Position numbers and translations under genes: made by a program. The notes beneath the pieces are model-generated. The model was given only the letters and a program-made list of their open reading frames with translations. It ran no database searches and was not told where the DNA came from. From the NCBI GenBank assembly GCA_973895155.1, contig OZ316893.1, positions 18,073,836 through 18,137,835 on the forward strand: 64,000 bases of DNA, in the 5' to 3' direction. Source of the DNA: Marsupella aquatica (Eukaryota > Plantae > Marchantiophyta). Shown here piece by piece: positions 13,063 to 40,058 of this stretch (its first letter is position 1; every line of letters starts with the position of its first letter).

Positions 13063-13964
13063 TGAAGTGGGGCTGAGAGAACTGGGAGAACTGACAGAGC
13101 TGTGAGAACTAGGGTTTGGGGTTTTTGGTGTTCCGGAGGGTGAGGCGTTCGATCTTTGTGTATTGTGTTATGTTTGTGATGATTATCGTGATAATGGCAA
13201 GGATTACTTCGGATTAAGACGACTTTGAATGGATTTGACCATCAGGATGATGATCCACGGACAAGCTATCTAAACTTTGCTTACTCTGACGCACGACGGA
13301 AGCTGACGCTGTAGATTCAAGCTTTTTCCCAAGGATTCTAACATCTGAATGACGGGAATGCATCTGGGAGCAGACAAGAAGTCCGACCGTGCTCGTGCTG
13401 TGGGCTGTTTCTCTGGGTAGGGTGAAATTGCGTCACAGTTGGAAGGAGCCGCGGGGCTAATCTCTCTGGCCTTTATGCTGAAAGCGCTTTCAACTTTACT
13501 GGCGTTCAAACAACGTTACGACATCTTTGATTGGGTAGTGCGGACACTGCCACTGGTGTACTGCATTGCATGCGATCACTAGTACTGGTTTATGTTGCAT
13601 ATTCCCTGAGGCGCTGCTCTTGCGGCTTCTCACTTTCTGCCTCCAATTCCTGGGGTGACTCTACCATCCCTACGGCTCACTCGGTGATTCTTGCAAAATT
13701 GGCTTGCTGGTGACTCCCTAGACCTCCTTTGGGGATCTCGGTGCTGGTCTCGTGCTGGTGGACATTCTCCTTTCTGGTGACCAGGATTCCAGGTGAGATA
13801 CTGTCCACATCCTGCGGTATTAATTTAGGTCTCCCTTTCACAAAGTTCATGCATTGGTGACTGGGAATCGCCTGCTTCGTCTTTGAGGTGCGTGCTCACT
13901 GTATCCCAGGTGCTGGACTGGTGCCCCCTGCCATTTACCTTTCTTCGATTTTGTCTCGATCAAC

Positions 13965-15917
13965 TTGATATCTATGTCGATATATCGGAGGAACACTTCG
14001 GGACACGGAGGACGCGGGGCTCTCATGGCGGGACCTGCCTTTCTACGCGACGGGGCTGCACAGAGGGATGCGGCACGGAGGGATGTGGAAGGAGGTGCTG
14101 GCCATTGGCATCATGTGGATACTGGTGGCCCTCGTGAGCGCGAGTTTTTTGCTCCTAGCAGGGGTGGTTATGTCAGCAATTTTTCGGGACAGGATGCCCG
14201 ATCCGATTTGATAAGAAACCAATGTCCACTTGATAGGGAGGCAATCACTGCTCTTCCCTCTGATCAACCATTGCAGAGTTGGTTCGGTTTGAAACCTTCT
14301 GGTGATAATGTTGATGGATTCGGAAGATGGGAAGCTCATCGTGCCCTTGACACTATTTCTATGGATGTTTTGGAAGGCCGTGAGCAGCCCTCCTACAGTG
14401 AAACCTTTCAAGATGACATTGGTGAACGATCTGGTAGGGAAGACATGAATGTGGACGGAGTGTCTGAGCAGGATCGCAGTGATCGCAGCCATTTTCACTC
14501 AGCTGGTCCTCCAACTTTGGGTGCAACGGGAGAGGGCGTGCAATCCTCAGTTGAGGCAAGGGCGGAGGAAGCTGAGGCTTGCATTCCACTTTTAAGAAGG
14601 ATCTCAGATCTCACAATACAAAATTGGCCCTCCCAGCTTCACACTACAATTACTTGGTCCCTTGAAGAGGCGGCTGAGACTGTTCGGGGGCTATTCAACT
14701 GCTCAATGATGTGTTATTTCACTGATCGTGCACCTATGCTTCCGACGTTTAAATTCTGGGTGGAGAAGACTTTTGTTAACGAAAGGAAGTGGCCAGTAAC
14801 ACAAGTGAAATTCGTGGGGAAGAGCTTCTACATGGTGGCCTTCAAAAATCCTGAGCACCGGGACCTGGCTTTGGCAGAGGCACCCTGGTTTCTGGAACGG
14901 AAGTATGTTTTTACCTTCCCCTGGGACCCGTCCTTTGATATCATGAATGAGTCCTACACTCTCTTACCTGTTTGGATTGAAATCCCTTTTCGCGCACTGC
15001 TATTGGAACCCTGTCGTCGGAAGCTGGCTGCTTCTCTGGGAGATATTTTGCATTATATTCAGGGCGATGATTTAAGCTCCTACCCCCATGATCGTGTTTG
15101 TATACTCTCGGACACTCAGCGGGAGGTCCCGCGCAGTGTTGAAGTCCAAATTCAGGCTGATCTCTCCATCTGGCAACCAGTCATTTTCAAAAATATACCC
15201 TTCCACTGTTTTATCTGTAATCGCAAAGGCCACTTGGCCAGGGATTGTCGATCACACGAGGAGCAGGCACAGGAGGCCCCCCTGGCCGCTCCTCCTCTTA
15301 ATACTGATCAGGGTGAGGTTATCCCTGTGGAAATTGTTACTGCTGTTGACATACCTGCCCCTCTTGAGTCTGAAACCATGGCGGCTCCTTCTCCTCTCGA
15401 GGGCATCCTCGGAACTACGACTACTGCTGAGCATGATCCTGGAGGGAGCTCTTTATTTGGCATTGCACCGGTGCTGGCTATTGATTCCTGGCCAGTTGTG
15501 ATTGCATCGGCGGTGGATGAATCTGCTGAATTGGGTCCCCAAAACCCTCTGGTTAACTCTGTTTCTATGGAGAACGAGGTTCCTAGGATTTTTCAAGATC
15601 TACAGGCTATGAATGACGAGCCTAAGCTTCTGTTGGCAGCACCTGAGATTACTTTGATGCCGTCTAGGGAACTTGAACCCCCTTTGGCACCTTTGCCTGC
15701 CGAAGGAACTCAACTGGTTGCTATTGGGGAGGGATCTGAGGAAATGGTGGACGACCCCTCTAGCTCTGAAATACCTTATGATATGGAGCTATCCGAATAT
15801 GAGGGATTTATATCCCGCTCTGCTCAAAAGAAACACCGAGCTCGTAAACTGGCACGCAGATCCCCACCTGAAGAGAAAAGGAAGGATAAAGGCAAAAAGA
15901 AAGCCAAGAATCAATGA
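13965..15917 (+). CDS. L1 ORF1 protein (DUF4283-like region + CCHC zinc knuckle)
   Basis: ALAEAPWFL..FPWDPSF..LPVWIEIP and CFICNRKGHLARDC are typical of plant L1 ORF1; start codon uncertain. Confidence 0.88.
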   Translation: MISMSIYRRNTSGHGGRGALMAGPAFLRDGAAQRDAARRDVEGGAGHWHHVDTGGPREREFFAPSRGGYVSNFSGQDARSDLIRNQCPLDREAITALPSDQPLQSWFGLKPSGDNVDGFGRWEAHRALDTISMDVLEGREQPSYSETFQDDIGERSGREDMNVDGVSEQDRSDRSHFHSAGPPTLGATGEGVQSSVEARAEEAEACIPLLRRISDLTIQNWPSQLHTTITWSLEEAAETVRGLFNCSMMCYFTDRAPMLPTFKFWVEKTFVNERKWPVTQVKFVGKSFYMVAFKNPEHRDLALAEAPWFLERKYVFTFPWDPSFDIMNESYTLLPVWIEIPFRALLLEPCRRKLAASLGDILHYIQGDDLSSYPHDRVCILSDTQREVPRSVEVQIQADLSIWQPVIFKNIPFHCFICNRKGHLARDCRSHEEQAQEAPLAAPPLNTDQGEVIPVEIVTAVDIPAPLESETMAAPSPLEGILGTTTTAEHDPGGSSLFGIAPVLAIDSWPVVIASAVDESAELGPQNPLVNSVSMENEVPRIFQDLQAMNDEPKLLLAAPEITLMPSRELEPPLAPLPAEGTQLVAIGEGSEEMVDDPSSSEIPYDMELSEYEGFISRSAQKKHRARKLARRSPPEEKRKDKGKKKAKNQ

Positions 15918-16207
15918 TCCTTACTTTTCTCCCCTGATTCTACTGTGCAGGATGCTGAGGGCTGGGTGACTCCAGGACGGAAGCTAACTCGGGAGCAAAA
16001 TCGCTCCAGCGCTGCGCTCTCTGTCCCTGTGGTGGAGGTGCAGCCTATTGCTAAACGGGATCCCCCGCCTATCCTTACGGGTGGTGCGGTGGGGGTGGTT
16101 GGTGGGAATGCTGCCCCCTCTGACCTGCTGAATATTGAGGCGTAATTTTGTCTATTTGTTGCTTCTCCTGAAGCTGCTTTGCTGGCCCCCTGGAGAAGTG
16201 GAGTGAT

Positions 16208-20130: not shown

Positions 20131-20833
20131 CCAGTGAATCTGACAGGATCATGACGGTGAATGATCTTCACCTAATGTAGGGACCCATTTAGATACTTTG
20201 ATGCTCTGTTGTTCATATGATGATTTAATCATATGCTGATTTGGCTGAACACTGTAGCATGGAGTATTAAGATTATTGCTTAGCTCCTGAATTGGCTCGG
20301 GATTGGTCTTGTGGTGTTGTTCCCCTCTAGTATGCAAGGTGCATCTGTTGTTGTCCTTTTTGGCCTTGTGGCCCTTTTGCCTTGGGCCTGCTGGTTCCCT
20401 CATCCGTGGGGTTCACGCGGAATAAAGATGAAATTAAAACAAAAAACAAAAAAAAACAAAAAAAAACGATGATAGATATTTTCAGTGCCACATTTGCTTC
20501 ACCAAATTGGCTGATTGTTTTTGTGGAGTTAGAAGGGAAGTAGACGCACCTTTTGGGAAAGTATGAGCACCAACCAAGGTCTGGTTGGTGAGAGAGAATT
20601 TGAACGGTGGAGGTAGGTCTGCAACTTCTAATTTTTCTTCGCGAATTTGATTCTATGATTTGAAGCACGTGGACTAAAGTTGAATGGAAATAGGAGATTG
20701 ATTATGAGCTAGTAAGAGAGAAGAATACTCAACCCATAGTGAGAATTTGATTGGAGTGGCTGAAAATATTTAAGTGTTAGGAGATAGATGCCTTGTTGCT
20801 TAGTGGAAACTCTACTTTTTCCGTCAAGGCCCA

Positions 20834-22006
20834 TTGATAGGCCAGATTCAGAGTGCCTTTGAAAAGATTCGTCGTGAGAAGAAAGTCCACACGAAGCTGG
20901 AGTACTGGAGCTACTACCGTGATCAATTGCCCAAGGAGGAGGGAGATTTTCTCATTGGAGCCCGAGACTCAATCATCTTTGGGGGAATTTGTTGTGAAGA
21001 GGAACCAGACTGGTCCCAAATTTTCTTTGATGACTTTTATGCGTTCTGGAACTACAGTAAGAAGTGGGACAAAGACTTCACAGTCTTGCCTTTGAAGGCC
21101 CCTACTGGGAACAACAAAGACCAATCAAAGGGGAAAGAGAAGCTCGATGAATCCATTGTTGATGTCAAAGTTTTGGAGAAGATGGCCCCATCTTATGAGA
21201 TGGTCGGTCGGCGTGGTGGCTTTGTAAATCCGAGAGCAAAGCCTTTGCGAATGACAAAGCGTCTTGTGGATTATTTCTCGTGCCCAGGTCATACAATGTT
21301 GGATTTCTTCTCTGGAGGACAGACATTGAAAGCTTGTGTCATTCTTGGTCGGGATTGTTTTGTGTATTCGGACACAGCTCAAGAGATGGAATTCACAGAA
21401 GCCTTTGCTCAGCTCCTTCATGACAACAAGCAGGTTTTATATGTGCCACCCAAGGAGCCGTTACCATCTGAGGAAATTACTGTCGGTCCCCTCGTTGTAA
21501 TAGAAGAGGCGGCCTTAGACATAGCTCCGGTGGAAGCCAGTGTTTATGAGGAAGTATTTGCGGAGAATTTAGAGCATCGCAAAATGGAGGGCCCAAAAGT
21601 CACAAGCTACATGGAAGAGGAGGGTGAAATACTGCCTGAATTTGGAAATGATGCTCGAGATGATCTCGACGTTCCAGGTGTTCCTTCATCGGGTGACCTT
21701 GGGGATGCACAACGTGAACAACAGTCTTCAACCTTGGATGTTGGCTGGGAATCCACCTTGCAGGATGCAATTAGCCAACCAATTCCAAGCCCTCCTCAAC
21801 TGGATGAGATTTTCTCTACTAAGAAAGCTAGTGGCTGCCATACTCCCCCTCAGGACAAGGCAGGTGCATCGTCCTCTCCCTTGGACCAAATGTTTTGCGC
21901 TTTAGAGAATAAGCTTGTTTTCACAGATTCTTCTACTGGAAGCCCCGTAATTCTTCCTTTTGTTAGGAAACCGGGGACTGAAATTGGTAGAACTGGTTAC
22001 AAATAA
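20834..22006 (+). pseudogene. ORF containing the C-terminal (SAM-binding) half of an N4C/N6A DNA-methyltransferase-like domain
   Basis: VNPRAKPLRMTKRLVDYFSCPGHTMLDFFSGGQTLKACVILGR parallels the beta-class pattern HPTQKP..L..RLI...S.PG..VLDPF.GSGTT..A...LGR; no (S/D)PPY motif present; degenerate coding sequence continues to about 22412. Confidence 0.62.
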
Positions 22007-22487
22007 CTCAAAGCAAGTGCTACTCATTATGTTTGGACTGATGGACCGTCAAAAGGTCAACAAGTCAGTATAGAGCAGTCTGAGAAGATTATTCGATCTA
22101 GAAAGTATAGGAAGGATAAGTTCAAATTAGTGCCAGTTTGGTCTGAGCCAGCTCTTGTTGAGACCCTTCCCGGAGGGATAAATTTGGACATCCAAAACCA
22201 ACTAGGAGATAACCTTCTAGATGAATTTGGGTCTTTCAGCACGTGAGGTTGAAACCCAAGTTAGTTTGAACAGTCCTGAAATTCAGCCGTCTAAATTATT
22301 ATGTCTACCTTCACAGAAATAGGTGGGCCCTTACCAGTTGTGGAGTGCGTCGACAATAATCTCCAAAGATGTCCTGAGATTTCTTCAACTACTGACCTTC
22401 AAGCAACAATAGGTATGACGTTGACTGTTGTTCATTCACTTGTGATGCTCGAGATCGTCTCAAGCATTCCTTTGTTTTATCTCTCAC

Positions 22488-25400
22488 TGTGGTGCGTCCC
22501 ATGGCTCCCCAAACCCAAGAAACCTCCCCGCACAAGCCGATTCCCGCAGGTTTCGTGCTTGGTCAAGGCCGTTTCCGCGGCTTAGCGGCATGGGATGCTG
22601 CTAACCTCCTTTCTACTACTACTATTAACATTTTACACACATATACTGGACAGATCCTTCATCGGGTCATGAGATACGCAGTCGGCCTAATCTAGGCCTT
22701 CAGCCGCTAAGACCTCTCTCAGCTCGACACATCCAACTCTCACTCCCTTGCTTACTTCCCTTCTACTTGTTGATGTGGGCACTCTTCACACAAGTTAATG
22801 CGACACACAAATAGCAAAATGACTCATTCTGACTGAGTTATACCATGCACTTGCAATACAAACAGTACATCTCATACACAAGCTCTGCGAACTAAGCCGT
22901 GAGGCCAACTCTATTCAGTTCTTAGGTATGAGGAAACATGAATATACACAAGGGTCACTATATAACTAACCGAGAGCTTCTCTTACTACTTGATCCCAGC
23001 CCTGCTGGTGCAACTAAAAACTTGCTAAAGAAGAGGCCCTGAACTCCCCGCAGCCCAGGTACTTATCCTGGTTGTGGATCTGCCTGATTCCTTGCAGCGT
23101 AAGCCTAATCTACCTACTGTAATCTACCTAACTGTAATCTACCTATGTACAGCGAGGCAGGAGCACAAGTGTCGTCCTCACCCGTGGATCCGAAATCCCA
23201 CTAATCTAAGTGTCAGGGCCGTCTCCTGGTCCTGATCCTAAGTCTAAACTTGGAGATCAGCGCCCGCCCTGCCCACTCACGCCTCCTACCTCCATGTCCG
23301 CCCTCCCTAACAGGGACGGCGCCCTTACACCGTCACGACACCGGTGGCTGGTCCTCAATGGACGCCCCCAACGCTTCCTTCGCAGCCACTGCCGTTGGTC
23401 CGTCCTCTGACAGATTACCTGCCCCTGATCGAGTCAACTCTTCATCGGCCTGACTGGGTCCACCCTCGGCTTCGGCCTCAGCATCGGTCACGGCCTCTGA
23501 TACGGCTACGGCCTCCCCGGCATGTTCTAGTGGAGGATCCGGTACCTCGGCAGCATTACTGGTTCTCCCAGCCTCGGCCTTGCCATCTCCACTTCCTAGG
23601 ACTGGTGGATCCACCGCTGTGCCAATGCCGGAGGTTGGTGCCGGGTTTATCTTCTCGGTCACAATAGCTTGAGAAGCCGTATAACTCCCAGACCTAGAAG
23701 GTTTCCGCTTCTTCTTCTTCCCTATTTCGACAGCCGGTTCCTTCCCCTTGCCACTTACCTTCGGCACCGGGGTGAGTGTTTCGGCTTGTCCTTCGGCCAA
23801 TACTACCCCTGGTAACTGGGTTCCCCCAATTGGAGTTGGACCTGATGAAGCCAAGCATTTAAATACTACGGCTTGTGTCTTCAGCCGCTCCGTTTGGTTG
23901 TCGGCCCGCCGTTATAGGTTCTCCATCTTCCTCGTGATTTCCTCCAACTCCTCCTGGGTCTCGTCCAGGTCCTTGCGCGCCTCCTCCAGCTCCTTATTGG
24001 CTTCCTCCAATTCTTTCTTTAAGGTAGCCATCTCCTCCTGGGTTGCTCTTAGCTCCTTGTCGAGCTCTGCTACGACCATAGACTCCATCTTATTCATCTT
24101 GGCATAAGTCTGGTCGAGCTGGTCGTCCTTTTCACGCAGGTCGGCCTTGAAGCTGGCCGTTAGGGACGCAAGCTCTTGCTGCAGCGCAATAATCCCTTGA
24201 TAGGATTTCCCTAACTCTGCTTCCTTCTGCTCAAGGGCTCCGCGGATATCTTCGAGCTCTCCTTTCAACGCCCTCTCCCTTCTCTGGTTCTCCGCCATGG
24301 CCCGATTGTTGGTTGCTAAGTGGGCCTCCTCTGCATCCCTTAGCTCCAGCTTCCATTTCTCTCTTTCCTTGACTGCGCCGGCCAACTCTCCTTGGGTCCG
24401 AGTCAGTTTATCTTTGATAATCTGATTGTCAGACTGAGCGATATCCAACTGCCCCTGCATGATGTTTAGCTCATGCCGCTTAATCCGCAGCTCATCTTGG
24501 GCTTTCTTGGCTACCTGCAGGACTTCCGCCTCGGCTTCCTTCTCCCTAAGCCGCCGGATGACCTCGTCCTTCTTGCTTCTCTCCAAAGCCACCGCTTCTT
24601 CTAATCGGTGCTTTTCCAACATCTCCCTTTGGAAAAAGGGTCCCTGCTCCAACTCCTCCCCAAAGATGCTGAGCGCCAGGTCCCCACACATCTCCCCGTA
24701 CTCCATGGCTCTATCCTTAGCATAGGTGGAGTAACTAGAAGTCATCGGCATCAACCACCGCGGCCTCTGCTCCCAAGTCGCCTTGCGGATTTCTTCTATG
24801 GTGGCAAGAGGGTTGCTTCTTTTTTCGGCAAGCCGCCTGATGTCCTCCGGCCAATCTCCTCCTAGTAAATCTTTCTCCCTAGCCAGGGCTGCTTTCTCTT
24901 CCTCCCTAAGTCGCTCCTGAAATTCTTGTGCCGTTTGCTTTATGCCGTCAAAGCTCGGGGGAGCAACCTCTGGTGGGGGAGACTCGGGGCTACTCTGATG
25001 GGTGGGGTCCCCTCGAACTACTCTTGGAAGCGTGGGGATAAATCGGCCACAGGTCCTTACTCCTGGAACATGATGATCCGACCCATAGTCGGAGTTATCA
25101 TTGCTGTAGTCCTCCACCGCCTCCTCCACTACTTGGACTCCCGGCTTCTCCCTTTGTTCCCCTGGTCCTGTCGTGCAAACTGCCTTACCGATCACGAGCT
25201 CTGGTTCCTCTGGTTTCCAAGCTGTCGTCTCCCTCTGCTCTCCGTGGGAAGGAGCCTTAGGCTGCTCTGCCTCTGATTCAGGGCTTGAGGCTCCCACGTA
25301 CATTTGTACTCCCGGCTTGTGTTCCGGCCTCCCTCTCTCCTTGGCTCCGGTAAAGGGGTTTTTCCTCCTGAGTCGGCTTAGGCCGGCCTCTGGGGCAGTG

Positions 25401-27141
25401 TCCTGTACCGGTGCCATTGCCGTTGCTGGTGCCGTTCTCTCCTTCTCCAGCATTTTCAGCAGATTCTGCATGCCTGATTGCTGCATCGGCAAGTCTTCTT
25501 TCCTTGGCCAAAACACCTGCTCGATCATCGGATTGTCGGGCTGGTTGGGCTTCTCTGGTGCCGCCCCCTGCTCCGGAACCTCCTCCGGTGCCCTTGCCAA
25601 TAGGGGAAGTACTGGGGCAAAGATTTGACTTTTGGCATACCGGCACAACAGCGGCATGTGATAGCCAAGTCGGGACACGCTTCCCACGCCGATCACCTGC
25701 TGTTCCTCCTTCAAGATCTTCTTCAGTTGGTTGAGGAGGTACCCGTTGTAATCCCGGCTTGGGTCTGGCCTTTCTGCCAGGTAGACCTGAGCCTTGCCGA
25801 TCTCTGCCCTCGGCAAGTTACAATGCATGGTCACCCGCAAGAAATCGATCATCTCTCCGATGTGTGGGTTGGTGCAGGTGTCCGGAAGAAGCCATTCTTC
25901 GTTGATGGTCCTAGGAACGACCGGAACTCCTTGTCAGGTAAGGTCTTCCTGGTATCAACCTTGGTCTTATTACCCATCGGCAAGCCAAACACCTCGGCAA
26001 TCACTCGGGGAGTGAGATAGAAATCCTTCCCATACACCCTCGTGGAATTGGTCTCGGGTTTCCATGATCCCACAAATTCTAATAAGTCTGAGTCTGACAC
26101 CTCCGGCTTCAGCCATGGTAATCTTACGAAAGTCTCCAAGCCGGATCCGGCCATGAAGCCCTGGTACTTCTTGGTCTGCATGGATGTAAAACATGCATCC
26201 TCCTCCCATGCAAAGTGTAATTGCACTTCCTCTGGTAGGGTCGCCGCCCAGCCTTTCTAGGTGTCATCGTTTGTTGGAATGGCATTGATGGGATTGAACT
26301 CTTCCTCTTCGGCTTCTCCCTGCCTCCTGCTCTGCTGGCTTCCTTGGTGCCGCCGACCTTGTTCTTTTTGCCGGGGTGGCCTCTTCGTTGTTGTTTCCTT
26401 TCCTCTTCATCTCGGCTGCCGTGGATGTTTCTCCTAGCAAGGTTGCCTTCGTCCACCCCTCCGTGTTACCCTTCAACTCCTAGTGTAGGTCGTTGCAGCG
26501 ATTGATGGCTTCCCGGATGCCGACGATTCTGTTTTCGCAAAACAGAAGGTCGTCGAGCTGATTGGCAGTAGGAGTCCACAAGAACTTGGCCTTGATAAGT
26601 TCTCCTCCTAAGAAAGCCGTCTTCTGCAGTTCCCAGAGCCGAGCAAGCTCCTGCGTTCTCGAGTTGCTCTCTTCGATTCTTCGTCCTCGTAAGTCCTGAC
26701 GTACTCACCTGCCCGTTCGAATAGGCATCCCCAAAAATGTGTCGCTTGATTGACATTGCTCATACCCTCCTTGAGTCGATCATTGGTATCTGTTCCCACC
26801 CCGAGTGCTTGCCTAAGCAGCTGACAGTATTTGGCCTCCCGTAGTCGTCTGCCCAGTTCGTTCTTGCAAATGAGCCACTATTCCTCGCGAGCGGTCCTTA
26901 CCCCTCTCCTCCTCTAGTCTTCCCTCCCGTTGGTCACCCCTAGCCACCGACGCTTAGCGCGCCCTAACCCTAATCGTGTTCTCTCCCCCGGCGTCCTTAC
27001 TTCCGGCCTCGGCCCGGGTTCCATAGTCACCCTTAATTGTTTATATTTTCCTTTATTTTTGTTCCTAAACTATGGTGTTTCCAGGGTACACTCCTGCTTT
27101 ACCATGTAAACCGGGCTAGTGATTCCTGGCTAGGCATCACA
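22488..27141 (-). mobile_element. Solo LTR of family C (4654 bp) inserted in a probable intron
   Basis: Colinear with 52122-56796; TG..CA termini; TSD CTCAC (22483-22487) / CCCAC (27142-27146); flanks read GTATG (22413) ... CTAAC ... TTGCAG (27176). Confidence 0.93.
23333..26763 (-). pseudogene. Family-C LTR protein (PMD-like + coiled coil), disrupted copy
   Basis: ORF pieces 26608-26799, 26264-26476, 25849-26226, 23912-25852 and 23333-23854 align end to end with 53034-56720. Confidence 0.88.
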
Positions 27142-27176
27142 CCCACAATTCTAACATTGGTGTTCCTTCTTTGCAG

Positions 27177-28234
27177 GACCCTTGCCTCCACTTCACGTCC
27201 GATCAGACGGAAGCTATTGATTCTTGACCTCAACAAAATGTGTTGGGATTTTGTCAAAACGCCAAGTTTCGGACCGCACCGTAGTGCAACAAGTGTGCAA
27301 GGGTGTCCACTGGGGGAGACGTGGAGGGTTTAACTTTATGTATGTTGAGCGACCCCATCTTCACGAGTTCTTAATCGCAGCTTTTTCGTTATTTGATGTT
27401 GCCATTTGGACTTGTGCAAGGAAACCCAGGACGGATGAAATGATTCATTTGATCTTCAGTCAAGAAGAGCGAGAGAAATTCAAGTTTATTCTCACACAAG
27501 AAGATACATTTGATACTGGAATCCAGAGGCTTGACATTACCGATGGGAAGGCAAATATTCATTTGAAGGATTTGAGGGTGGTTTGGAAACGTTATGGTGG
27601 ATTATACGACGAAACTAATACACTCCTTCTTGATGACACTCCAATGAAGGCATTTGCAAATCCAGAGAATTGTGGGTTGTTTCCTTCCTCATTTTTGCAT
27701 CACTCCACGGATGATACATTCTTTCCAGAAATACTATGGCCTATGCTCAGGAAATTGTATCATGCCTTCAATCTTCAGCACTACCTGTTTATCAATCATC
27801 CAAAGTGGTCTATGATAAATGTTTTAGCGGACAGAGATCAATAGGCTGTCATTTATGCGTTGTTGACGGAGCGGTGGGGTAGTATGGTATGGGTTCATTC
27901 GGTTATCCATATAGTCTTGGATGTCACAACGGACAAAATTCCTTGGGATGTCAAGAATGAAGTGCAACAATTACCACCAATGGAGGAATTGACGGAGGAG
28001 GCGATCAACAACCTTGCAAAGATGTTAATTGGATGTCAGTACACAAGACCCTACAAAGACAATCATCGGGGATTTGTTTCGGAAGTCTTGAGGTGTAGGG
28101 ACCTCACCACAAAGTTCTGGAATAGGAAGCATCTCAATTTCTGCAATCACGATATGAAATATGACCCGTCAGGGTCTAGATTTACTTGCTCAAATGAATT
28201 CTGCGGGGTGGAGGAGCATGAGATTTGGGTCTAG
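27177..28234 (+). pseudogene. FCP1/NIF-type HAD phosphatase-like domain with a Cys/His-containing tail, disrupted
   Basis: RKLLILDLN, then after a frameshift ERPHLHEFL, FDVAIWT, KDLRVVW, NTLLLDDTPMKAFANPEN; ORFs 27224-27844 and 27860-28234 share a frame across one TAG. Confidence 0.8.
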
Positions 28235-28573
28235 ATTATCTTGACCCTACACTGAACAGTTACAATGTGAGTTGTAGATATACATATTCTTACTCAAAAA
28301 AAAGTGAAGCTATGCGTACTATCCATTTGAGTCTAGATGTTGTTGATCCTCTTTTACTTGTAGATATGTTCTCAGAAAAAGGTTATTTGGGTCTCGACCC
28401 TATACAAAGGGAATAGCTAGAGATATAGATTCAACAACGGGTCAAAATTATGTGGACCCTACATTTGGGTCGAGATAATCTCGACATAGATTTTTACATA
28501 GTAATTGATATACATTCAACAACCGGTCAAAACCATCTAGAGCCTGCATTGGGGTAGATGTGGTCTCGACCCT
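28227..28573. repeat. Cluster of degenerate ~21-bp palindromes (GGGTC..GACCC)
   Basis: gggtctagattatcttgaccc 28227-28247, gggtctcgaccc 28389-28400, gggtcaaaattatgtggaccc 28439-28459, gggtcgagataatctcgac 28467-28485. Confidence 0.7.
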
Positions 28574-28930
28574 GTAAAAATAGGTTTTTTACTTTTATAA
28601 TACATCACCGGTTTACCTTTCGTGTTTGTGTAACTTGGTTATCACAGGTCATTTGAATTTATTATATTGTCTTATTCTATTTTTTCATTGTTTATATTGT
28701 ATATAATAAGAACACTTTATTGTCTTTTAATTAATAAGTATTAATAATTGATAACTGAATTATTTAATTAATAATTTGGGCATTAGAATTGTAATTTTAG
28801 ACCTCAAAAAGTGTATATTTGGCCACTAAAATATATGCTTTTGGGGAACAAGTTATAGAACTTTTGGGGGTAAAATAAGAAATTTGAAGGTCAACTTCTG
28901 GACTAGAGAAATTCCAGTTTTAATGAATAG

Positions 28931-29518
28931 GGTGATTCATTCTCTGGCAAGTGTGCCTCTATCATCAAGGACTGGGAACCTATCACTCTTGGCTTGCCTT
29001 ATTTTACAGATTTTGATGAGGAGATTGTGGTTTGGGGTAGACGTTGGATTGTGAAAACTTCCACACTTGGAGAGAGACATGGATATGGAGTATTTGCTTG
29101 TGAGGATATCATCATGGATGAGGAGGGTGGGTCAAGTGTTCATGGTAGAGAGGGTCCTACTTTGTTCCCACACAGTGGACCCATCTACAAGAGAAGACAT
29201 TGGAACATGATCCTTACACAACATCCTGAGTGGAAAACATATGCTCTAGAGATGGATACTTTTGATGGTAGCACTAGAAGGTATAGTGAGCAGCGGGTGA
29301 TAGATGGTGATCCCATACGTAGTGGGAATATTGCTGGTTTCATAAATAGTACTGTGGGGACTCGGCCCAAGCGTAGGGCCAATTGTGAGTGGGTTTTTAC
29401 TGATGGTCCAATGCCGGCACCATATGGCACGACATATCATAAGGACCATTGCTTAGTTCTTGCTACTAGGACCATTAGAGCAGGAGATGAGTTATTCACA
29501 CACTATGAGTGGCATTAG
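28931..29518 (+). CDS. SET-domain protein (probable terminal exon)
   Basis: GYGVFACEDI, GNIAGFINS, NC and VLATRTIRAGDELFTHY are SET signature motifs; the frame is open from an AG at 28929-28930. Confidence 0.85.
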   Translation, partial: GDSFSGKCASIIKDWEPITLGLPYFTDFDEEIVVWGRRWIVKTSTLGERHGYGVFACEDIIMDEEGGSSVHGREGPTLFPHSGPIYKRRHWNMILTQHPEWKTYALEMDTFDGSTRRYSEQRVIDGDPIRSGNIAGFINSTVGTRPKRRANCEWVFTDGPMPAPYGTTYHKDHCLVLATRTIRAGDELFTHYEWH

Positions 29519-29734
29519 GAAATCATGTCCTTTATCCTCTTGCACCTGTTTTGGACTTCCCATTTACTATTATATATATATGGCCTTTGGGCTCATTTTG
29601 GAGTAATAAGGTTTTAGCCCATGCATTTACTTTAATTCTTAATGTCTTGAATGAATGGTGTTAAGTCTATTTTAATTTGTTGTACTTGGTCAAATATACA
29701 TGAAGAGGTTTTTTGGTTGTAATGTGCATAGAAT

Positions 29735-32700
29735 GTGCAACCATCTCAACAAATGTTACCACGAAGGTTGAGAGCAACATATTGGGAGATGGGTATGCCA
29801 GAAGAGGGAGAACCATCAGATGAGGAAGCCGCACCTCGTACTGATGACCAGGTCATGCATGATCAAGATAGAGCCATGGATGACTTCATGGTTGATTGGT
29901 TTGGTGCCAATGTTGAGGATGATGTGCCTCACATTGGTCATGAGGCTGGCCCTTCAAACAACCCACGGCCACAACATACTCCAGAGGGACAACAACAATG
30001 GAAAGAGGCAGAGGAACATGCTCGAACACCTATTTTTGAGGGTGCTCGGTTGAGCCATCTTTCTGCCATATTGGGGCTCTTGAACATTCAAGCCAAACAC
30101 AAGGCAAGCAATTCTATGTTATCAAACATATTTGAATATTGTCATGACTTGATGTTACCCTCGGAGAATGTGTTGCCAGGGACTTGGAAGGATGCAAAGA
30201 AGGTTCTCTCATCCATTGGCATGGATTACCATATTATTCATGCCTGTGTGAATGATTGCATGTTATTTCATGGGGATACAGCCCATATCACAAAATGCAC
30301 AGTGTGTCATGAGCCACGGTATGAGCCAAACATGCTAACCCAAAAGGTACCAAGGAAAGCAGTTCGTTGGTTCCCCATAATTCCTCGCTTGTTGCACATG
30401 TATAGATGTTCTAACTTGGCCGAGTTGATGGTATGGCACAAGAAACATCGTTCGGAGCCTGGTGTCATGCGATTAAAAGTTGACTCTCCTACTCATAAAC
30501 ATGTGGAATCAACATGGCCAGATTTTGAGCGTGACCCTTGGCATGTGCGACTGGGGTTGGCATCAGATGGAGTTAGCCCTCATTCACTTGGAGGGAAGGG
30601 GAGACCTACATCGGTCTGGCCTGTGGTTCTCATGAATTACAACCTTCCACCATGGTTGTCCATGAAAAAGGGTTTTTTGTTGCTATCTTTGATTATCCCA
30701 GGGCCAAAGAAGGTGAAGAACATGGACACCTATTTGACATTACTGGTGTAAGTAGTGGGTAATTCCAAAAGCATGAAGAAACTGAAAATTTTTAAATTTT
30801 TTACGGTGTTTAGACTGCAATTATTGCTAACTGTAACTAAAACAGCATTCAAAGTTACTAAGTTCCTAAGTTACGAGTAAACTCAGTTTACGAGTTTACT
30901 AGTTCACTTCTTTACGAGTTACACCTTAAGATTTGGCGACTCTGTGATCGTGACATCTTACAACTAGTTCAACGGGACTCCACAACGGATGAAGAGCTCA
31001 CCTTGAAAGGGAAGGAATGCAAGACATAGGCGCTCATTACTGACTTCTCTTCCACCTTACCTCTCAAACTCTGCCCAGCTTCAACCGGTATTTCAGAGAT
31101 GTCAAATGGAGACTTCGACCCTTCTATTCCAGGATGATGAATAGTGATGAGTTTCTGCATCACTATCCCCAAGTATATGCTGCCACCTGCAACAACTATG
31201 ATGTACTAGGGATATACAGAGAAGCTCTTCGTATAGATTCCTGTTATTTGATGAAGCGAATGCCTTTGATGTATCCTGAGAGACAACTAAGGTGCCTACC
31301 CTACTCTAGAGGATCCCCACGCCAAGCTAAGCTGATAGAGGTTACCCAGAACCGAATTGTTACCCTTGTGGAGTTACTAGAACCAGAGGACATCCGACAG
31401 CAAGCTTGAAGAAGTCTCTAAGTGTTCTTAGTTAGTTTTTAGAGTAGTGCATCTTATCTGATTTTTAGAAATGTGTTCTAGAGCTTTAGAAGCTGTTATA
31501 CTTCTTTAGGCTGTAGTCTGTACCTAGGAAACCCTGCTGGAAAAATTTCAGAGTTTTCCGAACCAGGAGTAGAAAGTTAAAAATAGTTGAATCTACTCAA
31601 TTTTTAGTATACTGAAATTAAGAGTTTAAGAGTTTAAGTTTTTACGTTTTTAAGAGTTTAAGTTTTTAAGAGTTTAAGAGTTCATACTTAGCCATTTTTT
31701 CCGGCTTTCCACTTATTGAATCGTCGTTTTGACTTTTTGAGGGTTATGAAGAGGCATGTCTCTTCGACCCTGTGACCTCTTATTCTGTAGTTCATCACTA
31801 TTTATACCTCTTCCCCTAGTGTAGAGAGATGGTTAAGTTCTGCATTTTTGCCTCCCTTTTGTTAAGTCTATTGATTCTGAACCTACGAGTTCTAAATCAG
31901 ACTTAATATTTGGAGAGACTTACCTCCTTCTTGTATTTTGGAACCCAAATACTTGAAGTAAAACCTCAGTTATGAATCTCGTGAATTATAATGTCAGATT
32001 CCGCTTTGGTGACACATTGTAATCTCACAAGTTCTTAGAGTTAACTCATTGAGTTTAAGTTGCATTGGAAATGATGTTTTCACCTTCATGTTGCTTAGTA
32101 CCATCTAAATGCTGAAGTATTTATCCTTTTAGATCTTGACTAAGTATCACTTAGGAAGAAAGGTCAAGACATGTTGCCGGCATTTTAAAAGGATACTCTA
32201 GTATGCAGTTTAGATCTGAAAAGCCGTGTGGATTTGGATTCCCTTTAAAGTCATTCCATTATTACTTATGTCTAAGGAGTAACCTTGGTCTATTCCAGAC
32301 TCCCTTAAGCATACTCTGAGAGATTTTTCCTTGTGTTTTGTTAATTGCAATCTTTTGCTTAATTGAAGGTTATCTGATGTTGAGTTATCATCAAAAACTA
32401 CTCACCGCTGTGGAGCGATCTTCAAAGTACCTGATTAAAGTAATCAAGATTGATTACTATGTGTGACACAAGAGCTTAAAGCTTTGTTTTTAGTTTATTA
32501 CATCAAACCAACCCCATCTTGTTCTTAAAGGGAACGAATACCGAGTTTGGAGACTTTAAAATGTGATTTTTGGTTCTCTATGGCAAACTACAACTGGTTC
32601 AGGAACTCCAGAAATTATGGGAAGGAGTATGGGCATATGATGGTCAAAAGACTACAGGGGGTACCCCACGGGTTTTCAAACTGAAAGGGGTTTGTATGTG

Positions 32701-34720
32701 GACCATGCATGACTACCCAGGTAAGAACTTTGTTGGTTAAATGCATCATATTCTAATGCATGGTATCCCCTCATTTCCATGTGCTAATCCTAACATAATG
32801 TGTGTTTATATGACCAGGATTTGGCTTTGTGAGTGGGTTGCAAACCCAAGGCTACAAGGCTTGCTCCACTTGTGGCCCAAGCCTTGGTGATGTAGCCAAG
32901 TATTCATCACATCTTCGCAAGATTATTTATCTTGGGCATACAAAGTTTCTTCCAATGGGACATCAGATGAGGCGTGACCCACTACTATTTTCCTCTATTG
33001 ATATGCCCTTTGGTGACGAGCGTGATGTACCTGAGCCAACAACTTTTACACACTGGAAAGACATGGCTGCAAGAGTGGCAAACCCAAAGGATCCCATGCA
33101 ATTTGATGGTAGTGGCTTGACAAGGTGGAGTATATTAACCACTTTGCCCTATTGGGGTGAGTTGAAGATCTGCCATCTATTAGACCCCATGCACATTGAG
33201 GGAAATGTGGGAAAGACTTTGATAAAGGCTTTCTATGGAGAGAAAGACACTAACTTCAGGGAGGCTTATGAGGATCTTGAGATGCATCCAGATGTGTGGG
33301 TCATAAGTGATCCTATCATAGGGATCGAGCATCAACCTTCAGCTCCATGGGTGCTTCCTGTTGGCCAGACAAGGGAGTTTCAGAATCGCATAGGAGACAT
33401 GCGGTTTCCTATTGGTTATGGTGCCAATCTCCGAAAGACCTTTGGGATGGAGGACAATCATAAGTGGCCAAGGTATCTCAAGACACATGACTACCATAGG
33501 TTATTGCAGCACATATTGTCTGTGGCCATAATAGGTTTGGCAAGTGAAGAAGTGCAAGATGCCCTTTTGTCATTGGGAAAACTATTGAGATGGGTATGCT
33601 CTAAGGAGATATATACTGACGAGATCCCTGGGATGGAGGTTTTGGCAGCAGAGGTGGTATGCAAGTTGGAGAAGGCCCTTCCTCATTCCTTTTTTGACTG
33701 TCAAGTGCATTTACTTGTTCATCTTGTTCATGAGGTGGCCATTGCAGGTCCTGTGCATTGTCGGTGGATGTATTGGCTAGAACGATATATGGCAGTGTTA
33801 AAAGGTTATGTACGTAACCATGCAGGGGTTGAGGGAAGCATGGCTACAGGATACTTAGCAGCTGAAAGTATGTTCTATTGTAGTAACATATTGGCCACAA
33901 TTGATTGTACCTCTCCCCGTACTTGGGTAGAGGAGAGGGAAGATGAAGAGGATCGTTTAACAGGTGCTAGGAAAACCCGCATGTTGACACCAGTGGAGGT
34001 GAAACAACTGACCACATTCATGTTGAGTAATAGCACTATCATGGAAGAATGGAGGGATTTCTATGAGGATGCCAAAAGTAACAGCACAAGACCAAGGATT
34101 TTTCCAAAGTACCTTGACTATATGAAGGAGAAGTTAGTTGAGGTGGATGACATGGTGGTCAGGGGAGAGAGTGTATTATATTTTCTGGCTATCACAGATG
34201 ATGTTCGTACCATTGTTCATGGTCCCTTGAGAGTGGTTACAACAAGGACAGCAATGTGGACACAAGGAAGACATTTTAGGTGATCTCCATCTACCTTAGT
34301 AACCTTTGATTTGAATCACTTGGTTTAATTTAATTCATTTGTAATTCAAGCACGTATATTGAAGAGGCAGATTCTTGGTGTGTTTCATTAATTGGAATAT
34401 GTTTGTGTCTATTTTTGTGTAAAATGTCCTTATGGTTTGATGGATTTTAGGATTTCTTCCCTTGATGAGAAGAGGGGTCGTACCTTTGATTGTGGAGTTC
34501 AAGGACAATTCTCTCAAGATTCCCGTAGCAGTCGCCATGACACAAATATTATTCAAGATGTTGTGCCATATCATGGAAAGGTAGAAGAGATTCTAGTGAT
34601 ATCTTATGATGCACAATCAAAGTTTGAAGAGTATGTCTTCAAGTGCAAGTGGTTCAAAGTGAACCTTGTAGGTAACAATCCTACTGTGGTACAAGATGAG
34701 TGTGGATTTACACGACTGAA
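29735..34720 (+). pseudogene. CACTA/En-Spm transposase (Tnp2/TnpD-like), split by a solo LTR and two introns, 3'-truncated
   Basis: IHACVNDCMLF, WFPIIPRL, VRLGLASDG, WPVVLMNYNLPPW, IPGPK, HDYPG, LDPMHIEGNV, KTHDYH, GPVHCRWMYWLERYM, FKCKWF. Exons 29735-30746+32598-32720, 32818-34279, 34451-~34720; GT-AG introns 32721-32817 and 34280-34450 keep the frame. Confidence 0.93.
30747..32592. mobile_element. Solo LTR (1846 bp) inside the CACTA transposase
   Basis: TGTA...TACA termini; TSD ACTGG (30742-30746 and 32593-32597); removing it restores LTLLVQELQKLWEGVWAYD. Confidence 0.92.
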
Positions 34721-35636
34721 CAGACGACCTCAACAGGCGACCAGAGGCCCAGAGAGCCCCTTTAGTGTCCAATCAAATACTTTGGTCACTCATGACCAAG
34801 TGCCAACAAACAAAGTTGGCCAACAGTCAAAGTCTATTGCCAAAATGAATCCACCCATCCCGCCTGCCCAACCAAACAGTGCAGGAAAATTTTGGATTTT
34901 TTGTGTCACTGTCGCATTTAGCTCTACCTAAGACAACCCCCAAGGACAGTCTACATGAATTGTGGGAGTAAATGTTATTTTGATGTTTCACTCCAAAAAC
35001 AAGCGTGCACAAAGGCCCAAACACACAAACTTATGATGAGTGAAGATCGGAAAAAAAGCAAATATGCCTAAAAGCCAACACAAAAAATTTATGTTTTGCT
35101 CACTTCAAGTGCGTGTAGTCATTCGGCGTTATTACAAGGAAATGGTTGGGAAAGGAACACCCTCTATATAGGAGGGAAGGTGTTCCTTGGTAGTCACATC
35201 AAGATCTTCCTTTGAGTGTTATGATAGTGGTGGCCCAACCTGCCACATCCAGGATAGTTGAGCTTGTAGTGGTACCTGGGGGTACAGACATTCAAGCTCA
35301 TCACCACCTTGGGAGGCACAAATCCTAGTAGTGGCCAAACCCTACCCAAGCCGGAAGCGGTGATCAGCCCAGCATCCCGCCCAGCATCTTTGCTTTCTTC
35401 CCTGACCCCATGTGGAATGGCAAAAAGAAGCATTGGAGTGGAAATGGCAGATTTTCAAACATTTTAACCTTACTTGAAGCTTCTTTTGGTCTATCCGTCA
35501 CCCTTTAACCCATTTTAAGCCTCAAAGGAACGTTATGGAAGAAAGTTAAGAAGTTTGAGTTTGGAAGGAAGAATCGCTTCGGACAAACAATCGCTTGAAC
35601 ATTGCAAAATCCGTTTAGACTTTCGGCAACAACTTT

Positions 35637-36221
35637 CCTTGGAATTGATTTTTTATAAAAAGTTTTAGCCCGCAAAAAACCCCACATGCAGGGCAAACAA
35701 GCCACACGGCAAAACAAGACAACCCCCTCCCACCCCTTGGGGGGGGGGAATACAAGGGGTACAAAAGAAGCCGTCACCAGATAACCCAAAACCAGCAAGT
35801 CAAGAGAGAATAGCAGTAGCAAATGAGAAGAGGGGGTCCCATGACAGGACCACAGCTAAGACCTAATCCCGCATTCTAATCCCATTGTGGGCACAGGGTC
35901 ATCCACCAGTGGAAATACAGCCCCTGCCATCACTAAGCCAGAGCCTACGCAAACTGTCAATCCTATCTTTAGCCCGGCACAACCGGGTGTTCTTTCTACC
36001 AGGGGGTGAGCATCTGCTCACAGCATTCAAGCACTCAGCAGCTTCAGAAAGCACTAGGCCCATATCAAATGTACGTCTACCACCTGCATTGAACATATGG
36101 GAGTTCCTGCCTAGCCACAACCTCCATAAAATCTGTTGCAAGACAAATAGTTTGACAATCTGCTCAGGGTCCCTCCCGTAAGCAGAGTCCAACAAAGCCA
36201 GCAGCCCCTGGACGATTGGTA
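35637..36221 (-). mobile_element. 5'-truncated L1 fragment flanked by a 20-bp direct repeat (probable TSD)
   Basis: LQQILWRLWLGRNSHMF..LSEAAECL resembles the L1 ORF2 end; AGACTTT(C/A)GGCAACAACTTT at 35617-35636 and 36222-36241. Confidence 0.78.
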
Positions 36222-37249
36222 AGACTTTAGGCAACAACTTTGACGGAATAAAGACTACATAGTTTTGGCCCTTGACTCATAAATCGTTTTACCTCTTACT
36301 TGAGCTTTATTTTAGTTAATTAGGATCAGATTTAGAATGACATCACTTGTCACTTATGGAGTCTCAGATTTAGATTTGTAAGGGTCTTACCTTTACCTTG
36401 TCTCTTAGAGTCTAGAATTCCTTTTAGATAGGAATAGATTTCTCAACTTAGGAGAAAACCCTTTGGTTTCTCCCATGTTATGAGGGAGCCTCCTACATTT
36501 GGACTCCCAAGCAAATGCTTATGTCTTTTCTTCAACATTGATTTTTGACCAAGTATGGGTCTTTTTCTCGTGCCAAATTGGGCTTAGGAGAAAGAATCTA
36601 ATGGAGAAGACTTGTACCACTCACATCAATTGAATTTCAAACATTTCATGGATCAAACCTAAGTATTCAAGTTTTGATGTTTGAATTAGTTGTAGGAAAT
36701 AGAATTGAATTGATAACTAAGGTGTGCCTTTGAAATCTAGTTGAAATGGGAATTGTACCAACCTTCATGACGTAAAACCGATCACTACTAAGTGTATAAG
36801 GAAGTTACAGAGAAGAGAAAACCTTTCAGTCTATCGAGAAGAAGCCGAACCTAAGGAAGTTCATTTCAGCATTTGTGACATAATAATCATTTCAGGATTA
36901 TATAAGGAGAAACAACAAGGAAATTACTTGAAGATTTCAAACACCACAAAACCTTAGTAAATTGCTTTGTTTATTCTTTACGGGACCGAATCCTGATTGT
37001 TTTGAGCAAGATCTTAGACATTTGGTGTTGTTCTACTTACCACACCCCAAATCACATGTACCCCATCCCCCTCCTTGGGGCCCACCATCACCTGGGGCCA
37101 CATTGGCCAAGCCCCTCACCTTTGATTCAACCTGGCTGCCAAGGCTGCATTTCCCGGCCTGCCAACAAACTTTTGGGAGAACTTCCTCCCTCCCTCTTAT
37201 CTGAATCATCAGGTGTCTCTCAGCTTTGGGCACAACTTGGCAAAGATTT

Positions 37250-38250
37250 GTCATAACTGCAGCAGTACGGGCTAACTAAGATAGCCACAAATAACAACCT
37301 TGTGGCCGAGCACAAGTTCAAATTTGTACTAGCCTTGCAGACGGCAATTGGCAAGGATGTAGAGATAAACTGGCATGGGCCCAAGTAGAGTTATTCAGAT
37401 TGCAGGCCTAAACTTTGCAAAGCTATGTCAAGAAGGCCAACTAGAGGGCCAAGGAAGACTTCGCCAAGATCAGGGCCGCCCACCCGGCCGCCCAAGCCAA
37501 GATTGAGCGATTGAAGCAAGCCCGCACTTGGAAACCAGGTCACAAAATTGACAAGTGTGATGGAGCAAATGGAAGGTCTACCAGGATGCAAATGAGGAGA
37601 TAGGTGTGGCTACTCAGGATTTTGCATCTATATGGGAACACATCAAGTGGCTTAAAGTGCAAAGGGATGGACAGCCCAATCCCAAGCCCTGGGAAGCATG
37701 CCAAGCACAGTTGGCGCTGTCACATCAGTGGTGGTAGTTAGGTCAATAGTGTCCGGTTTGCGTTAGCTGACTGGCACTTAGCAATGTTATTGCGCCAGAC
37801 TGGTGCCATTTTTAGGAGTTAGCTAGGAATCTTAGAATAGGACAAGCCATTTAGGGCTCTGACACTTAGGTTAGTAATAGTAGAAGTCACTTAGCTTAGG
37901 TAGCAGTTTGGCTGCTGCTCTGGCCTTGAGCCCTTACTGCTAGCTTAGTACTTAGTGCACCCCTCAATACCTCACTCGATGCAAGGAGGGAGACTTTAGT
38001 TTCAGGTGTGGGGAGCTAGGCACATGATGTATTGGGAGTCCCGGCCTTATTGAGTATAGAGTACCAACGAGGGGATAAGCAACTAAGCTTGCAAGGCAAG
38101 TGCGCGGTTGGGCCTTGTTGTAGTGTGGAGCCCCTTGTAGTTTTTGTTGATTCACAGTGAAGTTGAGTCAGTCATGCATATGCATACTTATGTAATCTAT
38201 CATTGCAAAGTCTCTTCCTCACCTTGTTGTTGTGTAAATTGTGTAATGCA
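37250..38250 (+). mobile_element. Older, diverged relative of the family-B LTR 3' region; boundaries approximate
   Basis: Colinear blocks shared with 5820-6140 (aata(g/a)gacaagccattt, cttagta..cacccctc, gggagtccc, agagtaccaa, actaagct, tagtgt). Confidence 0.55.
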
Positions 38251-40058
38251 GATTAGTTAGGAATGATGGAAATTTTATAAATTTTGAACTTTTTCTAACT
38301 CAATGGTGCAGTATAGTTACCTTTTGTAGCAATTTAGATAAACTAAACACGTTACCTAGTTAGCAAATTAGTATAGAAGAATAGATATAGAATAAAGGAA
38401 TCCCTGCCAATTTTCCCAATGCTCATAGTTAAGTGGGCAAACACAAATACCAGTCAATCATTTCCCGAAAGAAAAGAACATGCAACATCTTGAACTATCA
38501 AGCTCCAGTTCTTCCATGTTTGGCAAAAACTACACCAAAATATAACAAATAGTCACAATCCTAGAAATGTAATAACTCTAGCTCACGTCACTAGGCTTGA
38601 GATTGACGCCTTCAAAGACAACTAAGACAAGAGCAATGGCCAGTGCTGACACATGAAGGGCCGGGGACACTTCAAAGAGGAGACCCTGTAGTAGCGGACA
38701 AGAAGATGCTTCAAGCACACAAACCAACAGTGAAAGACTCCATGGCCCAAATAAATATATGTTGCTGCACCTTGAAGACTGAAATAGTATGTCAAGCAAA
38801 AAGATAGAGTCGATCTCATTTGCAACAACAGTAGCAGCAAAAGTATGTATGCATTTCCAGTGTCTAGACTTTCATGCCTTTGAAACTTTGCTTGCCCAAT
38901 GATGCACAAGGTGAAACACAATTAGATGCACTAAATGACACTGGGGTCAAATTCCCATATTTACCTTGAAAGTCGCAGGTTGAAAACAAGTAAAATGCCA
39001 GTCCAAGTTCAGATCAATTTCCTGACAGACATCAATTGCTAATGCTTCAATCATGATTTCCATTTAGTTATACCAGGCCATTCATGACAGATCAAAACAC
39101 TGATTGCAGATAACTGTGCTCACAAAACTTGTTGGCCATGCTCAAGCCCTTCTCCTGGCTGGTACGACTGTCACGTCGTCAGCCTTGGCCTTACTCGGGC
39201 TTCGGCTTAAATAGGCACATCCTTTGTCAAAATGAGGGTTCGGGCAGGGAGGCACGGAATGCACCCAACTTACATAAAATAGCGCTAAGTGCGCCTATCG
39301 TCATATACGGACACCTCCTAGGTATGATTTGTGTTCCGCCATTGGAACGTACCTCAATCGATAGTAGGATCGACCCTGGCTTAAGGGCTTCTAAGCCTTT
39401 GTATTGTCCGTCTTCGATCCGGATTTTGGTGGTATGGGTGCTCAACCCGAGCTCGGAACCACGTACACGCAAGCTGCACCCCATACACTACTTGGGTAGT
39501 GCGTTCGGCCAAGCGTTGGCACCTATACACGAGATTCACACACATACATACGCACAAGCATAAAATCTCGATTTATATGAAGGAAATAACGGGAAGGGAT
39601 TTTACTCCATAAGAGACATATGCGTACACTTAGTTGACCCAAATGCTTTGGAGTGACCAGGTCCGAGGCCGAGGGTGTACACTACAACGGAGCCCGGCTC
39701 CGCACTCGCCCAGCGAGCTTAGTCTTACACCCTCCCCTTGGTACTCTTCCACTCCCAGAGGTCGGGACTCCCCACACATACCGTGGATGTCCAATACTGA
39801 GACTAAAAAACCCCCTGCCTCTACCGAGGGGTGCACTAAATACTAAGGGCTGAGGAACGGAGTGTCCTCCCGCCCAAAGATTCATTGACTTAGGTCCTAA
39901 CTAATCTGACTGTCAGGCCAAAAAATGGCTGTGTCTTATTAGAAGATCCTAACCTACGCAGGCTGGACAACATGGCCGTGCTGTTTTAACTAGGGCAGGT
40001 TCTTGTCCCCATAGCCTGATTTAGCTATTCCTAACCCTATTCTATTCCTACTCCGCCG

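Follow-up and report, generated by a model that had tools for sequence, protein, structure and literature searches.

A four-domain, transposon-like block in the liverwort Marsupella aquatica is very probably two abutting decayed mobile elements, one of them a CACTA element with a SET exon

Do four enzyme-like coding blocks that follow one another on the same strand of a liverwort contig belong to one transposon? The question is raised by a stretch of 64,000 nucleotides of Marsupella aquatica (GenBank assembly GCA_973895155.1, contig OZ316893.1, positions 18,073,836 to 18,137,835 of the forward strand; hereafter the window, whose numbering is used throughout), a CpG-depleted nest of repeats of ∼46% GC with Ty3 elements, an L1 and solo long terminal repeats (LTRs). 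On its plus strand Pfam domains run in the order PF01555 (DNA amino-methyltransferase, MTase), PF03031 (NIF), PF00856 (SET) and PF02992 (Tnp2 transposase), and a preliminary description of the sequence had taken them for one large CACTA transposon carrying DNA-, histone- and possibly RNA polymerase II C-terminal domain (CTD)-modifying enzymes. Pfam matches to all four families bear out the strand and order of the blocks, and the span computes to ∼7.4 kb once two solo LTRs are removed, in keeping with the earlier ∼7.5 kb. The four-enzyme super-element itself is an artefact of nesting: very probably the block consists of two decayed mobile elements abutting at 28935/28936, the multi-copy element A (∼20804–28935), with an MTase fragment and NIF, and element B (28936–34716, plus strand), a CACTA element cut at both ends that holds a SET exon and Tnp2, with A likely inserted into the SET exon of B.

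For the junction test we aligned contigs of four runs (X1, X2, X3 and X5) to 28680–29130 and counted those among the pieces and loose ends listed. Contigs arriving from the left diverge at 28936 in X1 (three contigs, plus one behind 28940), X2 (four, plus two behind 28937) and X3 (five), the X5 contig from the left ends at 28936, and the loose ends behind this position show low consensus agreement (0.53–0.70 in pooled rows). From the other side, SET-side contigs begin at 28936 with different sequence in front of them (X2 record 14, depth 630.8; X5 record 26), and this sequence is the usual 5′ part of the SET exon, continuing the SET frame (GRWG..). None of the contigs listed in the four runs bridges 28935/28936. 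In X5 depth is split as well, with the MTase and NIF bins at 48–71 vs 14,800–74,500 for the SET and Tnp2 bins. Such a pattern is what the end of a transposon inserted at many sites shows where it adjoins another family; the MTase–NIF unit ends here with varied flanks, and a single transposon with all four domains is not borne out. A CACTA at 28824 was also considered as a terminus and rejected, being unlike the family end and having contigs that run through it.

A composite CACTA subfamily of the order MTase–NIF–SET–Tnp2, formed after A had entered B and then spread as a unit, would equally place the four blocks on one strand in this order. Depth is raised across 20.7–35.1 kb in X1–X3, similarly for both halves in X3, and red-algal Plavaka (EnSpm) elements combine PF01555 and SET in one protein, that of the accessory gene PAG2, as outlined in the accessible text of the report (10.1101/2025.02.11.637652). 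We nevertheless regard such a subfamily as highly improbable: besides the missing bridge, X2 depth right of the junction (28952–28983) equals that of record 14 alone and is thus fully explained by one non-bridging contig, the junction removes the 5′ part of SET and the Zn-motif exon, which the transposase likely needs, and a CACTA terminus is found neither to the left of the MTase nor elsewhere beside the block, consistent with the earlier observation that terminal inverted repeats (TIRs) were not seen. Several points also weigh against the two abutting elements. Contigs lose rare variants and the listing leaves aside 400 pieces and 44 loose ends, so a low-copy A–B junction is possible and only a common one is excluded, and contig depth is a rough guide and not a copy number. 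For A, no left end, target site or mobilising enzyme was seen, and the left arm of B was not found anywhere in the window, so that we infer the insertion of A where a deletion joining A and B is also possible.

The relatives of B place SET within a CACTA element. Among 16 metagenome loci at 65–79% SET identity, Tnp2 lies downstream of SET in 12; two of the other four end within 120 bases, one has 231 unmatched bases and one a broken SET. An MTase or NIF upstream of SET is found in none of the seven loci with at least 2.5 kb upstream, so the co-occurrence of the four blocks that a single element called for failed to appear at these loci. Two of the loci, L016 and L007, have the left end CACTACAACAACAGGGGGC (CACTAC) in common with different flanks. 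In L016 an imperfect right end follows ∼9.9 kb from the left end; ACA flanks the element on either side, and palindromic repeats occur close to its termini as well as in its interior. Of the CACTA termini and the 3-bp target-site duplication (TSD) looked for, these relatives show the CACTAC left end, and a candidate TSD (ACA/ACA) is seen at L016 only, beside the imperfect right end. The family layout is a CACTAC left end, a minus-strand open reading frame (ORF) of no known family, a Zn exon (C-x-C-x2-C..H), the SET exon and the transposase exons, and two Riccia gene models also have SET followed by Tnp2 (R1sor_002856, SET plus Tnp2; R1sor_004838, SET plus the start of Tnp2). SET is cargo inside a CACTA element, so this part of the proposed chromatin-enzyme cargo stands, and the MTase and NIF very probably belong to a separate element. 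It counts against this reading that most of the 16 loci (∼78–80% identical to the window in DNA) represent a single family from another host and so are not independent. As for L016, the element at 6033–15925 appears to be a full-length SET-CACTA; its palindromic TTTGCGA-N11-TCGCAAA repeats lie at the ends and around the minus-strand ORF, and a small inverted-repeat insert occupies 14461–15135.

The location of SET between the Zn-motif exon and the transposase exons makes alternative splicing likely. The donor of the Zn exon is in phase 0 in six of the seven loci holding this exon, a phase-0 SET acceptor was found by pattern in four of those six, and the Tnp2 acceptor (atag|AAT) has phase 0 in the window copy, as it does in 11 of 12 loci, where it stands at the position expected. 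With compatible phase-0 sites one donor fits either the SET or the Tnp2 acceptor, so two products are predicted and the SET exon is likely spliced alternatively with the transposase; judged from these sites, B is probably one transcription unit that would give a Zn-motif–transposase and a Zn-motif–SET protein. Maize En/Spm makes TnpA and TnpD by alternative splicing, and B resembles it in its Tnp2 transposase, its (predicted) alternative products and, as seen in the relatives L016 and L007, the CACTA ends and subterminal repeats, the difference being that the second predicted product of B is a SET protein. The Zn motif sits where CACTA transposases have Transpos_assoc. Two results speak against equating the two: the match of the Zn exon to PF13963 is weak (E 0.031, one protein), and a profile of the motif, which aligns to the cysteines of Coffea Transpos_assoc, scores no better than shuffles.

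In the window copy the first core exon of Tnp2 (29732–30746, plus strand) starts at the conserved phase-0 AG, and the remainder of the transposase (32593–34716, plus strand) carries C-x2-C, DPMH and ERY motifs and DUF4218 before it is cut off in DUF4216 near 34714–34716, the right arm and terminus of B being absent in the window. Pfam finds PF02992 in 29732–30748 (E 5.2e-25) and 32814–34280, DUF4218 (E 2.9e-32) and, weakly, DUF4216 (E 0.049), and the translations hold the motifs ASDG, HDYPG, CSTC, DPMH and ERY of a DDE-type CACTA/EnSpm transposase. Introns are predicted at 32721–32817 and 34280–34450; contig joints at 32722→32811 and 34281→34444 look intron-like, the letters between them were unread, and we do not use them as evidence of splicing. 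Homologue searches, here and below, needed shared exact words, so their blanks are weak; the Tnp2 search of longer proteins gave one Coffea match. Tnp2 has a dN/dS of 0.14–0.17 (four comparisons with shared branches).

The SET exon (28936–29518, plus strand) has lost its first ∼75 codons in the window copy, and the Zn-motif exon that would precede it is missing as well. Pfam places PF00856 in 28931–29515 (E 1.8e-6), and the copy reads GxG, INS (for NHS) and ELxxxY, with His where the remaining 32 of 33 aligned proteins have Tyr or Phe. A predicted structure confirms the SET fold (predicted local distance difference test 89.5, best Z 12.7). For SET of the window against 11 of the 16 loci dN/dS is 0.21–0.29, in pairwise comparisons that share branches and leave out L012–L016 because these are partial or frameshifted; as for Tnp2, the proposed dN/dS check gave a positive answer, and SET is under purifying selection. 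Its product is likely a protein-lysine methyltransferase. From sequence we can go one step further only with hesitation, stopping a little short of favouring it: this methyltransferase may be recruited to the chromatin of the element that encodes it and would counter silencing there.

One alternative holds that SET is inactive or has a non-histone target and that the MTase and NIF are passively captured, non-functional fragments, of host or giant-virus origin, in a non-autonomous element; we consider it rather unlikely. For SET it draws on the His of the NHS motif, which the family reads NS[ST] and which is absent in 33 of 33 aligned proteins, a point that also tells against a lysine methyltransferase, as does the failure of any SET subfamily to stand out in structure matching: the model matches Set1, SET7/9 and SET8 about equally (Z 12.2–12.7), so that the substrate cannot be read from it. 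Purifying selection, the conserved GxG and the C-terminal Tyr kept in 31 of 33 proteins argue for an active enzyme. The named relatives of SET are liverwort gene models, from Riccia sorocarpa and Calypogeia fissa, with at least 11 scattered models of the family in Riccia (30 of 88 matches looked up), and no SET homologue was found by exact words in viral contigs. In Calypogeia fissa P0084/P0113 and P0080/P0129 are distant members of the family with different N-termini, and may be domesticated copies.

What, then, is element A? Its MTase ORF (20804–22003, plus strand) has 400 codons, of which the first ∼190 amino acids correspond to an N6/N4 DNA amino-methyltransferase of the beta class (permuted), over its C-terminal half: HP-x-KP is present, and motif I, in the atypical form LDFFSGG, lies C-terminal, in the permuted order. 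The Pfam match (PF01555, E 1e-5) reaches 26 bits vs a cut-off of 26.7 and covers only profile positions 110–207 of 221, with further matches to M.RsrI in PDB (E 0.0023), a PHROG DNA methyltransferase (8e-7) and Atlas PF01555 clusters (0.93). An acidic, low-complexity C-terminal tail continues in frame past the TAA to 22243, and the AG at 20802–20803 is a possible splice acceptor. Upstream, depth drops between 20906 and 20599, and the L1 ends at 20467. Catalytic motif IV, [DNSH]PP[YFW], is absent in the window copy, whose 5′ part is missing. The single-sequence model (34 on the same confidence scale) was not used for a structure search, and exact words found no homologue in proteins of 420–2000 or 131–419 amino acids, viral contigs or prokaryote genomes.

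The NIF exon (27177–28231, plus strand) is NIF/FCP1-family, HAD phosphatase-like, with one frameshift after motif I, and Pfam places PF03031 in 27221–27841 (E 2.4e-14). Motif I reads ILDLNK, the DD motif is kept (LLLDDTP), and a C-terminal extension follows the stop (27845–28231). The best matches are UBLCP1 among solved structures (8e-10) and, below its cut-off, TIGR02245 (1.3e-14), that is HAD-IIID, and FCP1_euk scores 20 bits vs a cut-off of 135. The exon resembles UBLCP1/HAD-IIID in these matches and differs in having no visible ubiquitin-like domain and DLN instead of DxD. Since it reads DLN and not DxDxT (no DxDx(T/V) is present), CTD dephosphorylation, and with it the Pol II-modifying domain once suggested for this locus, is unsupported, and the product is probably not a CTD phosphatase. 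No NIF homologue was found in viral contigs by exact words, the search for NIF having stopped short of a full protein search.

That the two coding parts belong together is indicated by the single 400-codon ORF, an X2 contig at 21858–22351 (depth 376.7) and the joint across the first solo LTR (325.6). X2 contigs along A to 28924 have depths of 320–453 vs ∼21 for locus-specific contigs, which suggests ∼15–20 close copies, depth being a rough guide, and the MTase–NIF unit is present in runs of three coded organisms. This persistence, together with an MTase frame open over 400 codons, argues against passively captured fragments; the absent motif IV and atypical motif I of the window copy, the DLN of NIF and the lack of an MTase homologue in the exact-word searches favour them. 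That intact A copies methylate their own DNA, at N4 of cytosine or N6 of adenine, is conceivable and in our view unlikely.

The one visible end of A follows a subterminal region (28232–28935) that is AT-rich, has short imperfect repeats and stops at a sharp terminus, ...AATAGGGTGA|T. Read on the minus strand this is A|TCACCC, the T at 28936 being common to the listed flanks. Helitron1/HLE1 elements have a 5′ TC end and an A|T target, according to the accessible text of PMC11417382, and A resembles them in its 5′ TC after host A and in its gene cargo; another cut point is possible. We describe A only tentatively as a putative element of the Helitron1 type, whose 5′ end would be the one visible here (A|TC, AT target). 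It differs in that neither a 3′ CTRR plus hairpin, the characteristic lack of a TSD nor a RepHel gene was seen: a strict scan of 1–21000 gave no CTRR with hairpin, A's other end seeming lost here, and no RepHel lies in 6581–13180, 20300–22500 (minus strand), 27140–28941 (minus strand) or 34700–39200, the A copy being truncated or non-autonomous. A hairpin near the visible end does not reach significance (z 0.0 and −1.16), and exact words gave no match to the end pattern in viral contigs. Helitron2/HLE2, which has a T|T target and short TIRs, was rejected for A, as most listed flanks go T then A and the end has no inverted counterpart in the window.

A second reading of the end is ...GGGTG|AT, by which A might be a DNA transposon that moves by cut and paste and has CA..TG ends (CMCT or Kyakuja-like), or be of some unclassified type other than Helitron; such lineages have CA..TG termini in the accessible part of PMC12730594. 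We hold this possible, with some doubt. The absence of RepHel from the intervals scanned agrees with it, as would a ∼320-bp unit present both at 11752–12069 and 20463–20782. Against it, the latter copy is not common to most A copies, since depth at 20599 is far below that at 20906 (X1 226 vs 9,565); those flanking letters that stay constant agree with an AT target; and an inverted copy of the end is wanting in the window. The ∼320-bp unit flanks the L1 region on both sides, with a partial tandem copy at 12121–12157. A broken transposase of A could be sought in the plus-strand ORF remnant at 12417–13060, which is cut by the L1 and contains a VPCLPDKYHGNVVFELPP motif of the kind common in the GCM-like transposon proteins found in non-seed plants; this possibly Cys/GCM-like ORF has no family match (no full protein search was made) and, for 12766–13056, no homologue by exact words in viral contigs.

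Returning to the two abutting elements, their history may be sketched as follows. In live copies of B the Zn exon would be spliced to the transposase or to SET, and SET would methylate lysines on the element's chromatin; A would carry its amino-methyltransferase for a similar selfish purpose. A would have inserted into the SET exon of B, or a deletion would have joined the two; two solo LTRs and, to the left, the L1 would have been added later, when the outer arms on either side were also deleted. Solo LTR 1 (22488–27141, minus strand; 4,654 bp, TG..CA, flanks CTCAC/CCCAC) has a long minus-strand ORF inside, is inserted in the predicted intron upstream of the NIF exon and is ∼84% like the LTR at 52122–56796 of a Ty3 element. 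Solo LTR 2 (30747–32592; 1,846 bp, TG..CA, TSD ACTGG) lies inside the transposase exon. Both interruptions had been described before, and both empty sites are present as contig joints, 22482→27142 in three of four runs (22483→27145 in the fourth) and 30741→32593 in all four. With B lacking both arms and an LTR inside its transposase, the copy is as decayed as first thought, and the locus is dead.

Other repeats surround the block. The Ty3 element at 52122–56796 and 63020–64000 has an LTR of ∼4.7 kb holding a long same-sense ORF (944 plus 288 codons) with a coiled-coil C-terminus and no clear Pfam family; its integrase stop falls in the first bases of the LTR, and its two LTRs agree at 99.5% of the 981 bases visible. 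An inverted repeat pair at 4965–6580 and 39169–40805 (81% alike, a coiled-coil ORF in each) probably represents LTRs of another Ty3 family. The L1 (13887–20467) is nearly complete, with ORF1, endonuclease, reverse transcriptase, a zf-RVT with a frameshift and a poly-A tail, and a tandem array of ∼8 copies of an 18-bp unit lies at 9841–10014.

Transposons bearing SET and PF01555 are already published for red algae and oomycetes. In the accessible text on Plavaka PAG2, an EnSpm-type transposase likewise stands near PF01555 and PF00856 domains for which chromatin or DNA modification is proposed; there MTase and SET are fused in one element, whereas here the two domains lie on separate elements, the transposase is of the plant Tnp2 type, the relatives have CACTAC ends and SET forms one of the exons within the transposase unit. 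HarbingerS and Phytophthora MuDR carry SET too, fungal EnSpm elements carry TET/JBP (PMC12730594), and the available part of PMC11417382 gives SET in proto-Helentron; as far as these sources go, all carry a chromatin- or DNA-modifying enzyme domain as B does, and differ from it in superfamily or enzyme and in kingdom. In the literature consulted, VANC of VANDAL is the anti-silencing case described. The matches listed in our literature search include no paper on a bryophyte SET-CACTA or on a plant element with PF01555 plus NIF. The SET-CACTA is real; SET-bearing transposons are a known kind, of which the bryophyte CACTA variant is new. Of the two, element A has been explained less far and offers the better lead.

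The MTase of A can be set beside Marchantia MpDN4MT1a/b and bdelloid N4CMT (PF01555), which the accessible texts present as host genes of bacterial origin with an SPPY motif and shown activity (10.1101/2021.02.12.428880, PMC8885841). All have a bacterial beta-class amino-methyltransferase domain in a eukaryote, a likeness at the level of the domain, and differ in that those are host genes and the MTase of A lies on a repeated mobile element, its catalytic half missing here. Land plants have few N6A methyltransferases, as stated in the part of PMC4738411 available. The fullest scenario is speculative, and as a whole we think it improbable: A would be an undescribed land-plant transposon family, perhaps a Helitron, whose intact copies encode an active bacterial-type MTase, for N4-methylcytosine (4mC) or N6-methyladenine (6mA), along with a HAD phosphatase, and mark their own DNA against silencing, a possible entry route of amino-methyltransferases like MpDN4MT1 into bryophytes, and the CACTA elements would splice SET onto the Zn module of their transposase and so set a histone mark of their own. 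Should the SET exon indeed be spliced to the N-terminal module of the transposase, B would be a compact, testable plant transposon encoding its own chromatin writer; and if the MTase of A is intact in other copies, a land plant would possess a mobile source of 4mC or 6mA, with consequences for the question of where the Marchantia 4mC enzymes originated.

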